NCBI RefSeq assembly: GCF_000517525.1 | Contig: NW_013666257.1 | Span: 131,399-143,478, forward strand | DNA: 12,080 nucleotides | DNA from: Limulus polyphemus | Taxonomy: Eukaryota | Direction: 5' to 3' | Shown: piece after piece, positions 912 through 12,080 of the stretch | Layout of the letters: each line of letters starts with the position of its first letter | How positions within the stretch are numbered: the stretch's first letter is position 1 | The notes under the pieces: model-generated | Database searches by the model: none | Told to the model about the DNA's origin: nothing | What the model saw: the letters and a program-made list of their open reading frames with translations, nothing else | Made by a program: the position numbers and the translations under genes

Positions 912-1066
912 ATGGCAGGAACAAAGCAAGATTTAAAATGCCAAAGTGATGATGATAGCATCTACCATATTCCCCCATATTACTACTTGCACGTGTTAGA
1001 CCAGACAACTAATGTAACAAGAGTCGAAGTTGGACCACAAAACTACATTCGGAAAAACAATGAAAG
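912..1066 (+). CDS. MVP: Major vault protein, coding exon 1. Start codon is ATG at 912 (alternative in-frame ATG at 882). The exon ends in phase 2 at an AG|GTAAAG donor.
   Basis: Translation [51 protein letters not shown](R) matches the conserved MVP N-terminus ([33 protein letters not shown]). ATG 912 has good Kozak context (gctaagATGG). A GTAAAG donor lies at 1067-1072. The split codon AG|G gives Arg once joined to exon 2. Confidence 0.8.
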
Positions 1067-2028
1067 GTAAAGAATTAAAAAAACATATATCTTATTTACA
1101 TATAATTGCAACACTAGGTTTTTTAATTATATGAAAAAATAAAACCTAACTAGACAAGCTTGCAGCAAGAAGGTCTTTACATTTAACACTGTCCTTTAAA
1201 ATCAAGCTGCATACTATTTTTATTACCTTATCTGAGAATGAATGGTTTATTGAAACATAAATCCCAAAAAACTGTTTTGTTTTTAGGTCATGGATAGGCC
1301 TGTCATAAGTTTGCAGTTGTCATATGAAAACATGATAGGATATTTTTAAAAAACGACATTTATACATATTTGATATCTTTGGAATAAGACAAAACTTGAA
1401 CTACAAAAAAAATATGTAAAACTTTGTCTTGTACTTAAGTATTTCCAGTACATTTAAATATTTTTTTTTGGTTTTTACTTATGATGAAAGCAGTAAATAT
1501 GAGAAAATTTACCATTGAATATGTTTTGTTCTTTGATAAACAAGAAGGTAGTCAAAGACCTTTCGAAAAGATGATCATAAAATAACAGTTTATCTGATGG
1601 CCTTGAAGACATTAATGGGACTCTGCAATTCTCTGTTCCACAGATTTTTACATACATACAGATATTTAATGAGATTGATGTCAATTTATCTTTAGTATTT
1701 AGTGCTATTGATACTAAGTTATTGATTAAGACTGGTGCTGTGTAAAAAGTATTATGTTACACTTTTTTTTTTACATATTAAATTCCCTGAATTTATAACA
1801 ATCTAACCACCATATTTTGTAGGCTATAGCAAAGGTGACTTGATAAATGAAATATGTGCGATACTTCTCAAACAGTTGTTCAGGTAATAGTTGGAATCTT
1901 AACTTAAAATACAGGCTTTGACTTAAAGCACTTGCATTTTAAATTCAAGAACAGGTAATGAGCCACCATATAAAACATGAGCTCCGTAATACTTCATCAG
2001 ATAGAATGAATCATCAGAAGTAGTGTGA

Positions 2029-2141
2029 CCCCCAGTGACACAGTAGCATGCTAGAAACCATGTTTTGATACCCATGGTGGGCAGAGCACAGATATCCCAT
2101 TGTGTAGTTTTATGCTTAACGTCAAACAAACAAGCAAACAG
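2029..2141 (+). mobile_element. tRNA-derived SINE-like repeat, copy 1. Head is partly deleted; tail is (CAAA)n-like.
   Basis: cccagtgacacagtagcatgctagaaaccatgttttgatacccatggtgggcagagcacagatatcccattgtgtagttttatgcttaac is ~80% identical to the element at 3657-3770. It has a B-box-like gttttgataccc and a tail caaacaaacaagcaaacag. Confidence 0.5.
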
Positions 2142-2387
2142 AAGTAGTGATGTTTCAGATTTATCAAGATGACTTTTCAATGCCAAAAAAGAACATATTT
2201 ACCATTGTACACTTAAAATGTAATCCAAAAATGTGAAGATAAGACATTCCAAAAAAAAAGTTAAACTTGTATAGTCATGAATGGTGTATAACTGCGTACT
2301 AACATTCAAATGTCACTGAAGATAATCTGTCTCTTCAGTTATACACCAGTGCAGATAATGATCTGGTGTGCAACAACAATGAACACA

Positions 2388-3272
2388 TTTGAAACTATTA
2401 GAGGATCGTGCTGTGTTCCTTGTGTTAATATACGTGTTCTGATAAAATTGAAACTGTTAGAGGATCGTGCTGTGTTCTTTGTGTTAATGTATGTGTTGTA
2501 ATGAAATTGAAACCATTAGAGGGTCATGGTGTGTTCCTTGTGTTAATGTATGTGTTCTTATAAAATTGAAACTATTAGAGGATCGTGCTGTGTTCCTTGC
2601 GTTAATGTATGTGTTATAATAAAATTGAAACCATTAGAGGGTCATGGTGTGTTCCTTGTGTTATTGTATGTGTTGTAATAAAATTGAAACCATTAGAGGG
2701 TCATGGTGTGTTCCTTGTGTTAATGTACGTGTTCTGATAAAATTGAAACCATTAGAGGGTCATGGTGTGTTCCTTGTGTTAATGTACGTGTTATAATAAA
2801 ATTGAAACTATTACAGGGTCATGGTGTGTTCTTTGTGTTAATGTATGTGTTGTAATAAAATTGAAACCATTAGAGGGTCATGGTGTGTTCCTTGTGTTAA
2901 TGTATGTGTTGTAATAAAATTGAAACCATTAGAGGGTCATGGTGTGTTCCTTGTGTTAATGTACGTGTTGTAATAAAATTGAAACCATTAGAGGGTTATG
3001 GTGTGTTCCTTGTGTTAATGTATGTGTTCTAATAAAATTGAAACCATTAGAGGGTCATGGTGTGTTCCTTGCGTTAATGTACGTGTTATAATAAAATTGA
3101 AACCATTAGAGGGTCATGGTGTGTTCCTTATGTTATTGTATGTGTTGTAATAAAATTGAAACTATTAGAGGATCGTGCTGTGTTCCTTGTGTTAATGTAC
3201 GTGTTCTGATAAAATTGAAACCATTAGAGGGTCATGGTGTGTTCCTTGTGTTAATATACATGTTGTAATAAA
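2388..3272. repeat. 59-bp minisatellite in MVP intron 1, ~15 tandem copies with two unit variants.
   Basis: Unit attgaaaccattagagggtcatggtgtgttccttgtgttaatgtatgtgttgtaataaa recurs with an exact 59-bp period (e.g. 2506, 2565, 2624). Variant A (ccattagagggtcatggtgtg) and variant B (ctattagaggatcgtgctgtg) alternate, with B at ~2388, 2447, 2565 and 3158 and A elsewhere. Confidence 0.92.
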
Positions 3273-3656
3273 ATTTCTTGTGCTACTAAATTTAATCCTT
3301 GTTTAGAGAACTTTTGCTTTGTTACAAAAACAATTTTTTACAAAATGAACAAGTTTAAGAGAAATGTGAAAACAAACATATGTACTTATGTCTTATTAAC
3401 CATTGCATAGCAGCTCATAGAATGGCCGAGTTTTTTTCTTTTTTTTCAAGTACAAACTTTTAGCTCATAGCTCCATCATCTCTTGACCAAGTTGAGATCT
3501 AATTACAGGTTTGGACTCAGAAGGTCAAACCCTTTCAAATGATGTAATGATTAATTTACTCTAATCTTGCCTAAAAGAATTTCATGTGGTATAGCTATTG
3601 AATATTCCTTTTTGTTTTCACCATAATTATTATGCCTCTTAATTTCCAATATGCCT

Positions 3657-3770
3657 CCCAGTGGTTCAGTGGTATGTCTGCAGATTTGTAGCACTAGAAA
3701 TCAGGTTTTGATACCAGTGGTGGGCACAGCTCAGATAGCCCATTGTTAGCTTTGTGCTTAACTACTAAAA
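3657..3770 (+). mobile_element. tRNA-derived SINE-like repeat, copy 2 (more complete tRNA-like head).
   Basis: cccagtggttcagtggtatgtctgcagatttgtagcactagaaatcaggttttgataccagtggtgggcacagctcagatagcccattgttagctttgtgcttaac. A-box-like tggttcagtgg and B-box-like ggttttgatacc are present. It is in the same orientation as copy 1 and is bounded by unrelated sequence on both sides. Confidence 0.55.
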
Positions 3771-4626
3771 CATTTCCAATACTTGGTGTTGTAAGACTAT
3801 AGTAGGTTAGCTCTATTTGTGAAAAATGAGTATACCTTCTGAATTAAATTTTATTGCTATATTTAATTGATTAGAAGCTCATTACAAAATATGATGATAA
3901 CTAAATATACACAATTAGTTCTATGAATGAGACAATGCATTTTGTGCAGAATGTTAATTGTTATTGGGTGCACAAAATTCAGCATTTCTGATAGTTAATA
4001 TAATGAATAAGAGTGTTGGCTGAGTTTATAAATTTGGAGTGGATTAATGTGAGTTTGAGAAGAAGTGGCAAGTGTATTGTAAATAATCCATGCTTTCAAT
4101 AACATTTCTGTTGAAATAGTTAACACAGGATCTAACTTTCTCTCAACCAGAAGCACCTCGAGGATCAGATGTAAAAAAAATGCCAGATTTATCTGATTTG
4201 GGTGAAACTTATAAAAGATTTAGCATATGATGAGAAATGATGATTACAATTTACAGTTACAAAATCATACAAACATTAATAGAGCTATGATTGGCCACAC
4301 CATCAGTAGAAGCCTCAGAGTTAAGGATAGCACTTCTTGTTGTGTAACTGATGGGTTTGATATGTTAGTCTTCTTCTTCTTCCCCTCTTCATTTCATTTG
4401 TTTTTCAGACCAAAGCACAATAGATCTTCAGCAGACAGCTCCAAGCCCTGCTGACCATGACTGAAACTTTGGCATGTCATCATCAATCAGCATTGTTCTC
4501 TTGATTACTTGCATGTGCAAGGTTCTGAGATGTTTAACTTGAAACATAGACTTTTTGACAACCCTTGTTGAGGAAAATCCATCCATCAAGCCCAAAGACG
4601 CTGGAGTGGCACACAAAAATAGGTTT

Positions 4627-5056
4627 GGTGCTGACAAGGACAGTAGTGACAGTAGTATTAGTAGCCTTTCATCAGATCAGAAGATCAAAATAAAAAATCT
4701 CCAACGTCAAACAGACAATGAAGGAAGGTCACTTCGATGGTGCTGACAAGGACTGTAGTATTAGTAGCCTTTCATCAGGTCAGAAGATCAAGAACAAGAT
4801 CTCCAATCTCATACAGACAATGAAGGAAGGTCACTTTGATGGTGCTGACAAGGACAGTAGTATTAGTAGCCTTTCATCAGGTCAGAAGATCAAGAACAAG
4901 ATCTCCAATCTCATACAGACAATGAAGGAAGGTCACTTTGATGGTGCTGACAGGGACAGTAGTGACAGTAGTATTAGTAGCCTTTCATCAGGTCAGAAGA
5001 TCAAGAACAAGATCTCCAACCTCAAACAGACAATGAAGGAAGGTCACTTTGATTTG
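4627..5056 (+). repeat. 102-bp tandem repeat, ~4.2 copies (units 1 and 4 carry a 9-bp gacagtagt insertion). Coding-like, with the period a multiple of three.
   Basis: ggtgctgacaaggacagtagtattagtagcctttcatcaggtcagaagatcaagaacaagatctccaatctcatacagacaatgaaggaaggtcactttgat recurs at 4627, 4739, 4841 and 4943. Spacings are 112, 102 and 102 bp, the fourth unit is 111 bp, and the array decays at ~5056. Confidence 0.88.
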
Positions 5057-5074
5057 AGACTAAAAAAAAAGTAA
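4718..5074 (+). CDS. Hypothetical repeat-encoded ORF (serine-rich 34-aa repeats, MKEGHFDGADKDSSISSLSSGQKIKNKISNLIQT x3.5) nested in MVP intron 1. It may instead be a non-coding minisatellite.
   Basis: A 118-aa ORF stays open across all repeat units. Upstream ORF 4555-4746 encodes the same repeat in another frame. The two frames are separated by a 1-bp difference in a homopolymer A run (aaaataaaaaatc versus aagaacaagatc). No recognisable domain is present. Confidence 0.2.
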   Translation: MKEGHFDGADKDCSISSLSSGQKIKNKISNLIQTMKEGHFDGADKDSSISSLSSGQKIKNKISNLIQTMKEGHFDGADRDSSDSSISSLSSGQKIKNKISNLKQTMKEGHFDLRLKKK

Positions 5075-5593
5075 ACAATTTGTGTGTTTGTGACTACTGC
5101 TAGTAAGTTGGTGCGGCAACTACAAAACCCTGTGTCTTTTTGACTACTCATAACTCACGATTGAAATATGTATTGCATATTTTGGATACAGCAAATTCCA
5201 GACTTTCCAACAATGTATGTAACACCTCCAACAAGCAATAATCAGAATTGCTTGTTCCTTGTCCTGCTACCACAAAAACATTACTCTGCCTCTGGTTGAG
5301 GGAGAGATCCTGAGTTAGTAATTAAGTTTGTTATTTTTACTTTGTCATTCATGGTTATTATTCCTTTTTAAAGTAATAAATATTGGACCAAATTTGCATA
5401 TTTCATTTAGTTTCCAGCTTATCAGTGTTTATTCATCAGTTCAGCTATCAGTAATAAATTAACTAGGTTGTGTGTCTGTATACTTTCATCTTTATTACTG
5501 CATCTGTGACCTACTCAATTATTTTAACCTAAAAGACAGCAGATTGAAAAGGTGTATGTTTAATTGTCTGTGCTCTCATACCTTTATGAAAAG

Positions 5594-5789
5594 GATCATT
5601 TTTGGTCCTGGGAGAATGGTGATCGTTCCTCCTCGTCATTACTGTGTCATCCAGAATCCTGTGGTGCATGACGTTGATAATTCAATCCAATATGATGCTG
5701 CTGGTCAGGTCAAGCTACAGCATGCAGATTTAGAAATTAGATTGGAGCAGGAACCATTTCCTCTTTATCCTGGAGAGTCTCTTCATGTG
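5594..5789 (+). CDS. MVP: Major vault protein, coding exon 2 (phase-2 acceptor, phase-0 donor).
   Basis: Acceptor is ...cctttatgaaaAG|G at 5592-5593, after a pyrimidine-rich stretch. Translation (R)[65 protein letters not shown] aligns with vertebrate MVP [23 protein letters not shown]...[25 protein letters not shown]. Donor is GTAAGC at 5790. Confidence 0.85.
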
Positions 5790-7226: not shown

Positions 7227-7347
7227 GACATTACACTTTTAAAAGTTGTACCGTCAAACACAGCACTCAGGCTTCGAGCTCTCAGGGATTTCGAGGATGG
7301 AGACGACAAAAAGGTTGCTGGTGATGAGTGGCTGTTTGAAGGCCCAG
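7227..7347 (+). CDS. MVP: Major vault protein, coding exon 3 (phase-0 acceptor, ends in phase 1).
   Basis: Acceptor is ttttAG|GAC at 7225-7226. Translation [40 protein letters not shown](G) matches [45 protein letters not shown]. The donor G|GTTGTA at 7348 is weak, but only this phase rebuilds the Gly codon with exon 4 (g+gg) and keeps GTYIPRK in frame. Confidence 0.78.
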
Positions 7348-9284: not shown

Positions 9285-9511
9285 GGACGTACATTCCTCG
9301 TAAGGAGGTTGAAGTGGTGGAAACAGTGAAAGCTTTTGTAATCAAACCAAACCAGGCTTTAAAACTTCGGGCTCGCATAGAGACAAGAGACAGAGATGGA
9401 AAGATAAGGGTCTGTGGAGAAGAGTGGCTTGTCAGGAAGACAGGTGCTTATCTGCCTGGAGCTTATGAAGAAATTGTTGACATTGTTAATGCATATGTTT
9501 TGACAGAAAAG
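9285..9511 (+). CDS. MVP: Major vault protein, coding exon 4 (starts in phase 1, ends in phase 0).
   Basis: Acceptor is acatAG|GG at 9283-9284. Translation (G)[75 protein letters not shown] matches [53 protein letters not shown]...[22 protein letters not shown]. Donor is AAG|GTAACT at 9512. Confidence 0.85.
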
Positions 9512-10272: not shown

Positions 10273-10509
10273 GAAGCAGTACAAGTAAGGGCAACTTGTA
10301 CATTTTGTGATGACCTGGGAGTCAGAAGAAAGAATGGAGAGGAATGGTTGATTAAAATGGTTGACACAGAAACTTACATACCGGGAGTATACGAGCAGGT
10401 AGTTGGTGTTGTACCTATTACAACGTTATCTAAACGCCAGTACTGCATTATTCTTGATCCTGTTAGTGAAGATGGGAAACCTCAGCTAGGCCGGAAGAAA
10501 CTGGTTAAA
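10273..10509 (+). CDS. MVP: Major vault protein, coding exon 5 (phase 0 at both ends).
   Basis: Acceptor is tgttccAG|GAA at 10271-10272. Translation [79 protein letters not shown] matches [82 protein letters not shown], with the same spacing of 21 residues between TEK and GEEWL. The donor AAA|GTATGT at 10510 is consensus. Confidence 0.9.
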
Positions 10510-10813: not shown

Positions 10814-10945
10814 GGTGAAATATCTTTCTTTCTGATGCCTGGAGAAAGACTAGAGAATGGTATTCAAGATATCTACGTTCTGGGAGAAAATGAAGGATTG
10901 ATCCTACGAGCCAAAGAATCTTTTACAGATGATACTGTCCTGCCA
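10814..10945 (+). CDS. MVP: Major vault protein, coding exon 6 (phase-0 acceptor). The 3' boundary is less certain; the gene continues beyond the window.
   Basis: Acceptor is cattaatAG|GGT at 10812-10813. Translation [44 protein letters not shown] matches MVP [36 protein letters not shown].... Best donor is CCA|GTAATT at 10946. The downstream in-frame read-through ([23 protein letters not shown]) has no MVP similarity. The expected next motif (AGDxWLIRGP) is not found before 12080. Confidence 0.65.
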
Positions 10946-11482
10946 GTAATTAACTTTGTGATACAATTAGGGTTAGCCATTATAGGTACTAGAACTGTGA
11001 AAGGTAGTCATTTGTAGCATTTATATGCTATTATCTGAATAATGGTTTTCACTCATATTGTTGTAGTATTCTTGAATCTCTAGTCCCTGAGAATCTCTAT
11101 ACATTATATCATCTGAATGAATATATCTTTTGATTATAATTTTGTCTGTAATTCTGATCACTCGTATTTATACTATTAATTACCTTTTTGGTTTGTGCCA
11201 ATGCATTTGGCATTTTGTGGAATAGATGCAACTGGAATTATAACTTATGATTTTAACTACAACTAAACAAAAATGACACATTATTAGAAGAAAGATAGAT
11301 AAAATAAATTTTATATGTAACTTTTAATCATATGGAAAACAAATCTGGACATTTCTGAAATCATAGTCAACAATCAGTTTTATTTTTGTCACTTAAGTAG
11401 TGTCGGTCATTTCAAGTTTATTCAAAAGTTTTTTCTTGAATACTAACCTTGACAGTTTTTCTTTGATTACAGAAATAAAATG

Positions 11483-11587
11483 GGGTGTAACAAGTATGAG
11501 TAGGATATGCTAATTTTTACCAACATCTACCACAGAGTGATAGATGTTGGTAAGAATCAGCATATCCTACTCATACTTGTTACACCC
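11483..11587. repeat. Near-perfect inverted repeat forming a ~47-bp stem with a 10-nt loop, in MVP intron 6.
   Basis: Left arm gggtgtaacaagtatgagtaggatatgctaatttttaccaacatctac (11483-11530). Loop cacagagtga (11531-11540). Right arm tagatgttggtaagaatcagcatatcctactcatacttgttacaccc (11541-11587). Only two mismatches, a/g and t/c, near the middle of the stem. Confidence 0.85.
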
Positions 11588-12080
11588 TACAGAGTAATTT
11601 CGTTGCATATTTTTTTTCGTTTGAACTATATAGTTTGATCATGAATGAATCGCAATTTTGTAGTGCAAATTATTGTTGTTTTAAAAATCAAAGAAATTTT
11701 ATGTATATGTTTGGTTATTTTGGTTTGATCTGTCAAAGAATACATGGTTACTAAATTACAGGCATATATATAAGTAGTGTTGAAAAATAACATTAGACAT
11801 CATAGGAAAGGTTTAAGTAGTATCAGGATTTTTTTTCTTTGTGAAGGCCACGATTTACGTAATTATTTCTTTACGATTTATTTATAGCTTAGGTCTTTAA
11901 AATGATTAAAATTTAGGAACTGTTTATCACTTTATTTCGTACGCCCTATAATACACTATTTTAAGTTTGTTTTTTTTTAAATAAAAGTTTATTAGTTTTA
12001 TAGTTTGTTCTCAGGTTATTTAGATCTCTGTATTTTGTGTTAACTGAACTGGCGATGAAAAAAACAATAGATTAATACTT

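Follow-up and report, generated by a model that had tools for sequence, protein, structure and literature searches.

The sixth intron of the major vault protein (MVP) gene of Limulus polyphemus carries a near-perfect 105-nt palindrome, which may have originated as a young inverted duplication in a single template-switch or fold-back event and may then have acquired about four transitions. We put the probability of this sequence-based reading at roughly 0.45. Among the origins considered it is the best one, because no TSD surrounds the palindrome and because, of its two arms, just one is flanked on both sides by a direct repeat. The hairpin is probably single-copy, and in our view it is raw material without selective effect and not an established small-RNA gene. 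Its single-copy status and neutrality, like the order of events given below, are what we infer from the analysis of the window, that is, of the whole stretch of 12,080 nt.

The window consists of AT-rich eukaryotic DNA (GC 27-41% in 500-nt windows), and its plus strand carries the 5' portion of the MVP gene. When the following six AG/GT-bounded exons were joined and translated, an open N-terminus of 356 aa was obtained:

912-1066, plus strand, MVP coding exon 1 (AG/GT-bounded model)
5594-5789, plus strand, MVP coding exon 2 (AG/GT-bounded model)
7227-7347, plus strand, MVP coding exon 3 (AG/GT-bounded model)
9285-9511, plus strand, MVP coding exon 4 (AG/GT-bounded model)
10273-10509, plus strand, MVP coding exon 5 (AG/GT-bounded model)
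10814-10945, plus strand, MVP coding exon 6, upstream of the hairpin-bearing intron (exon model, translation and MVP homology)

In a protein search, the 356-aa product was 71% identical to a spider MVP over 98% of its length, and the Vault Pfam domains were present in it; this similarity points to a chelicerate-like animal. The six-exon open frame, the spider match and the domains confirm the location "MVP intron 6" that had been assigned in an earlier sequence-only reading of this DNA. Exons and introns are numbered here from the ATG exon, and a further 5' untranslated exon is possible. The best identity among the MVP matches listed was 71% for the full query and 77-78% for exon 5, and the longest protein among the 120 best matches had 617 aa; MVP is about 850-900 aa long. 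The hairpin starts 537 nt past the exon-6 donor (donor at 10946). On its 3' side at least 493 nt of intron remain, and no 3' splice site lies nearer than 490 nt. Its orientation is that of the sense strand of the MVP transcript.

An inverted-repeat search, RNA folds and a comparison of the arms divided the palindrome into three parts:

11483-11533, plus strand, left arm, 51 nt, putative original intron sequence and template (inverted-repeat search; arm comparison, 48/51)
11534-11536, plus strand, apical loop AGA, 3 nt (RNA folds)
11537-11587, plus strand, right arm, 51 nt, putative newly copied segment, reverse-complementary to the left arm except for three transitions (search, fold and arm comparison)

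The arms, of which one reads GGGTGTAACAAGTATGAGTAGGATATGCTAATTTTTACCAACATCTACCAC, are complementary at 48 of 51 positions (94%) and are separated by a spacer of 3 nt, as required for the near-perfect 105-nt hairpin that had been proposed at 11483-11587. The outer 29 bp are paired without a mismatch (11483-11511 with 11559-11587). They are followed by two arm differences, an A.C at 11512/11558 and a second at 11516/11554 that forms a U.G wobble in RNA, and by an inner block of 13 bp, again without a mismatch (11517-11529 with 11541-11553). This is the fine structure described in the sequence-only reading, with 29 perfect bp, two differences and 13 perfect bp. Past the 13-bp block, a C.A mismatch (11530/11540) leads to a 3-bp apical helix, CAC/GTG, and to the AGA loop. 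Opening of this helix together with the C.A mismatch leaves a stem of 47 bp and a loop of 11 nt (11530-11540), and the previously stated geometry of a 47-bp stem with a loop of about 10 nt applies when this short helix is left out of account. Each of the three arm differences is a transition without a compensating change, the pattern that a single event followed by neutral decay should leave. The palindrome can possibly be extended outward to 11589, where A11589 is paired with T11481 and T11588 is mismatched with G11482 in DNA.

The RNA spanning 11470-11600, whose folding had been suggested as a check, folded with -81 kcal/mol (z = -17.8). Dinucleotide shuffles of this segment (n = 200) gave -23.2 ± 3.2 kcal/mol, and 0/200 equalled the real fold. 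The two strands fold equally well, with -83.3 kcal/mol for the minus and -80.4 kcal/mol for the plus strand. In the inverted-repeat search of the 12-kb window the palindrome was the sole outstanding hit; the runners-up were 20-30 nt long and 70-90% complementary, with arms kilobases apart. Stop codons interrupt all reading frames of the 105 nt except for one ORF of 43 aa. The GC content of the hairpin is 0.38 compared to 0.26-0.27 in the flanks, a value that is reached by 11.5% of the 105-nt intron windows.

A short direct repeat links the centre of the palindrome to its right edge, and its position delimits a putative insertion:

11530-11538, plus strand, first copy of the direct repeat, CCACAGAGT, in the middle of the palindrome (read from the sequence)
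11587-11595, plus strand, second copy of the direct repeat, CTACAGAGT, at the right palindrome edge (7-nt exact match ACAGAGT)
11539-11595, plus strand, putative insertion of 57 nt, comprising the inverted copy and a re-copied CAGAGT

The two copies, CCACAGAGT and CTACAGAGT, bracket the right arm only, and nothing comparable was found around the left arm. Extended to 12-mers, CCACAGAGTGAT (11530-11541) and CTACAGAGTAAT (11587-11598) are identical at 10 of 12 positions, with transitions at the other two. Measured against 2157 intronic positions of the window with identical geometry, the empirical p was 0.006-0.027, varying with the slack allowed, in a test that was picked after the repeat had been seen. 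At p about 0.01-0.03, this post hoc result is only moderately significant and is suggestive of an inverted duplication. If a single C>T change at 11588 is assumed, the direct repeat becomes 9/9 and the palindrome gains 2 bp (11481-11589).

A third occurrence of the motif, TACAGA at 11469-11474, lies 8 nt 5' of the left arm; of the other two, the central one reads CACAGA and the one at the right edge TACAGA. We treated the third occurrence as chance, and a complex multi-switch event could also have produced it. As a 6-bp TSD, TACAGA was rejected, since TSD and TIR would then be separated by an unmatched AATAAAAT.

The proposed course of events follows the four-point template-switch model (Loytynoja and Goldman 2017, PMC5453318) and would have taken place during DNA replication or repair, by fold-back or inter-strand copying. 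The ancestral intron would have read ...ATGGGGTGTAAC...CATCTACCACAGAGTAATTTCG..., and the nascent strand would have left its template after ...ACAGAGT (11538). Through a complementarity of 2-3 nt (CAC/GTG), it would have switched to the complementary or nascent strand opposite C11531. Leftward copying of the preceding ~51 nt, to about T11481, would then have generated the reverse complement that now occupies 11539-11589. The return to the original template would have occurred at the microhomology CCA (11530-11532), 6 nt upstream of the exit point, and CAGAGT would therefore have been copied a second time before synthesis continued into AATTTCG (positions 11595-11602 read TAATTTCG). Later, about four transitions would have accumulated, at 11512 or 11558, at 11516 or 11554, at 11540 and at 11588.

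The segment 11539-11589 is the reverse complement of the adjacent segment 11481-11531 at 47 of 51 positions. At the junctions we found the one-sided direct repeat and no TSD around the whole palindrome, a combination that was examined post hoc. When 11539-11595 was deleted in silico, the remaining sequence folded with -18.2 kcal/mol, compared to an intron background of -21.7 ± 5.8 kcal/mol. The present 201 nt fold with -86.1 kcal/mol, compared to a background of -33.4 ± 6.8 kcal/mol. The modelled ancestor, lacking 11539-11595, is ordinary unstructured intron sequence.

The template-switch (TSM) events described in PMC10710096 cover 28 to 83 nt, are enriched in introns and can make whole hairpins, which arise in one step from unstructured sequence with a sharp drop in energy. 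At least 18 human miRNA genes go back to such hairpins (Monttinen et al. 2023, PMC10710096). The Limulus hairpin resembles them in several respects: it is the reverse complement of adjacent sequence with a perfect stem made in one step, it is intronic, and its predicted precursor is unstructured. Furthermore, it shares with them the junction microhomology of 2-3 nt and the return upstream of the departure point, which leaves a short direct duplication. It differs in size, since the inverted fragment, at ~51 nt, exceeds the example of 28 nt given in PMC10710096 and, although within the 83-nt maximum, lies near the long end of the published 28-83 nt, which counts against a template switch. Unlike in the TSM miRNA loci, the stem of 51-53 bp exceeds the size suitable for a miRNA, and unlike in the published cases, the event is read here from a single sequence.

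The main rival to an inverted duplication is a short, fully palindromic copy of a MITE or foldback transposon that inserted into the MVP intron and decayed neutrally, its TSD being either 2 bp long (TA, now TG/TA) or lost. We regard this as possible, if doubtful. A near-perfect non-coding palindrome of about 100 bp that lies in an animal intron is very often a MITE; this prior favours a transposon, and we shifted it because the TSD is missing and the direct repeat is one-sided. In a systematic scan of the boundaries (±7 nt of the ends, TSD lengths 2-11), no TSD of 4 nt or more was present in any register, and the 2-3-nt matches obtained were trivial and had asymmetric offsets, in agreement with the previous remark that no clear TSD could be identified. 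The TSD registers of piggyBac (TTAA) and PIF (TWA) were absent as well, and an 8-bp TSD of the hAT type was rejected, as the flanks AAATAAAA and CAGAGTAA agree at only 3 of 8 positions. A single transition would turn the flanks TG...TA into a TA/TA duplication like that of Tc1/mariner elements, which speaks for a transposon and against a template switch, although the match carries no statistical weight. The same direction is indicated by the GC content of 0.38, which exceeds that of the flanks (0.26-0.27) and mildly suggests a foreign origin, and by the right end read outward (TAGGGTGTAA), which we take to resemble the hAT-type terminus TAGGG. The window also holds other interspersed repeats, two SINE-like copies among them, and the sub-threshold Rfam matches to long-stem miRNA families, which concern structure only, would suit a MITE too. 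TIRs, small size and a lack of coding capacity are all present, as they trivially are in any palindrome. On the other hand, neither the 29-mer nor the 16-mer recurs in the 12-kb window (up to 3 mismatches; blastn-short), a TIR-like match is likewise absent from it, and if the element were a MITE, the one-arm direct repeat would need to be coincidental (p about 0.01-0.03). Both termini with a gap between them and an arm 20-mer gave 0 matches in viral, metagenome and prokaryote genome collections, and the ORF through the hairpin had no relatives in a collection of 5.8 billion proteins; these results weigh little against a MITE, as the host genome is outside all of these collections and animal genomes are not expected in the nucleotide ones. 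Nothing similar to the hairpin was seen in three compact MVP genes from unrelated organisms, which were reached by a search with the exon-5 ORF, and a literature string search with arm 16-17-mers and the SINE-like repeat matched no papers.

The closest transposon precedent is Made1, a human element of 80 bp in which two 37-bp TIRs around 6 bp form a stable hairpin and whose palindromic copies gave rise to mir-548 (PMC1784062). Like Made1 and hsa-mir-548, the Limulus palindrome is short (105 bp compared to 80 bp), almost fully palindromic and non-coding; like Made1, which is often intronic, it folds on either strand. Made1 carries a TA duplication, exists in thousands of copies and has an autonomous partner, Hsmar1, whereas no TSD, second copy or partner was found here within the 12-kb window.

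Regardless of its origin, the hairpin might also function as a small-RNA gene, for a non-canonical miRNA or for an hpRNA of the endo-siRNA type, that would be co-transcribed with MVP and diced to 21-23-nt RNAs acting in trans. We consider this unlikely. As it lies in sense orientation within a transcribed gene, it would need no promoter of its own, and its stem has a very high stability, with -80 kcal/mol for the plus strand. There is precedent for such a fate both in the origin of mir-548 from Made1 (PMC1784062) and in the miRNA genes derived from template-switch hairpins (PMC10710096). However, the miRNA pathway prefers a stem of about 35 bp and an unstructured apical loop of at least 10 nt, with single-stranded basal flanks (a rule quoted in PMC10710096), and the present hairpin, with a stem of 51-53 bp and a 3-nt loop, departs from it in stem length and loop size. 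A canonical animal miRNA precursor was rejected on this geometry, which becomes 47 bp/11 nt when the apical helix is opened, and the earlier judgement, by which the length and perfection of the stem speak against such a precursor, proved correct. Across the whole window no Rfam family matched at the gathering score, and membership in a described miRNA family could not be shown. A permissive Rfam search of 11380-11690 returned MIR5380, MIR807, MIR8007 and mir-2797, all of them sub-threshold at about one third of the thresholds (best score 54.9 bits, for MIR5380, compared to a cut-off of 150), and the aligned columns were base-pair symbols and not conserved sequence. Complementarity of at least 13 nt to the MVP exons or elsewhere in the window was absent. 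None of the outer-stem 15-mers occurred in a horseshoe-crab miRNA supplement, which is weak evidence, and the sole match there was a chance 12-mer inside the mir-8 loop. The three uncompensated arm differences likewise count against a small-RNA gene. At the level of sequence, no evidence supports a small-RNA function.

Two other classes of intronic or double-stranded RNA invite comparison. A long, near-perfect intramolecular dsRNA is a better substrate for a Dicer-2-type enzyme than for Drosha, and in this the hairpin resembles hpRNAs of the Drosophila type. hpRNA loci have stems of hundreds of bp, are often built from tandem repeats and have defined targets, whereas from the present stem, which has no known target, no more than about two siRNA duplexes could be cut. 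Like a mirtron, the palindrome is an intronic hairpin on the sense strand. The ends of mirtrons coincide with splice sites, but the present hairpin lies deep in a large intron, where 537 nt separate it from the donor and over 490 nt from any 3' splice site, and by its position it is therefore not a mirtron. That it is a newborn, lineage-specific proto-miRNA or short hpRNA, which a single template switch created and which is expressed with its MVP host, seems very unlikely to us. If true, it would be an invertebrate case of a kind of de novo gene birth that is documented mainly in primates.

Since the host gene encodes the major vault protein, the hairpin was also checked for a vault RNA, and this candidate was rejected. 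Neither box A nor box B was found on either strand of 11400-11680 with up to 2 mismatches, and the Vault model gave no match at E ≤10 in the permissive search of 11380-11690. Moreover, Pol III transcription of the plus strand would end at a T5 run that lies within the left arm (11514-11518). ARAGORN reported no tRNA, and a scan for bacterial promoters and terminators, irrelevant here, was empty.

Palindromic chimeras occur in amplified and long-read libraries, and the palindrome might thus be an artefact of the assembly or the library, for example a chimeric fold-back read, although the analysis yielded no direct sign of one. A self-copy of this kind is expected to be identical, or else to carry random errors and indels, but the arms differ at three positions, all of them transitions. 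Moreover, the palindrome is a short element within a continuous intron whose upstream exons are intact. We find this explanation highly improbable, and the remainder of the probability falls to other explanations. Among the origins named in the sequence-only reading, the recent palindromic duplication, which was listed last there behind the favoured hpRNA and foldback options, is the one that fits best (no TSD, repeat around one arm), and the MITE or foldback element is kept as its main rival. The small-RNA precursor fared worse, being left with no Rfam match, a non-canonical geometry and no mirtron position.

According to the folds, this segment of the MVP pre-mRNA should form a stem of dsRNA, about 50 bp long, in which two A.C mismatches and a single G.U pair occur. 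Enzymes of the Dicer or ADAR type could act on this stem incidentally. If the template-switch origin is true, the hairpin is a clean non-primate example of how one replication error produces a complete 50-bp intronic hairpin, and such hairpins are raw material for new miRNA or siRNA genes. If it is a MITE, it is a matter of routine repeat annotation. Either origin leaves MVP and small-RNA biology unchanged unless small-RNA reads show processing, and either way the hairpin is another instance of an already known type of event.

Most of the repeats of the window reside in MVP intron 1 (1067-5593), which is 4.5 kb long. A minisatellite at 2389-3275 consists of 15 copies of 59 bp (91% matches) with a strong skew of G over C. 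A second tandem repeat, at 4648-5053, has 3.9 copies of 102 nt (92% matches), a period divisible by 3, and is overlapped by a plus-strand ORF (4718-5074) that encodes 118 aa with 34-aa units MKEGHFDGADKDSSISSLSSGQKIKNKISNLIQT. In Pfam, this ORF matched McpB_HAMP_1st with 27.8 bits at a cut-off of 27, a borderline and probably spurious hit, and an exact look-up found no record of its exact product. The ORF may represent an exon, nested or alternative, or else a plain in-frame minisatellite. Ahead of it, the segment 4380-4460 contains a polypyrimidine tract followed by AG (...tttgtttttcag) at its end, which in sequence looks like a splice acceptor.

Two SINE-like repeat copies, at 2020-2140 and 3650-3775, both on the plus strand, are 77% identical and share the core GTTTTGATACC..GGTGGGCA.AGC.CAGATA.CCCATTGT.TAG.TTT.TGCTTAAC. 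Neither ARAGORN nor Rfam called a tRNA there, although the head of the repeat appears tRNA-like by eye. These SINE-like repeats, apparently tRNA-derived, may be similar to repeats of horseshoe crabs.
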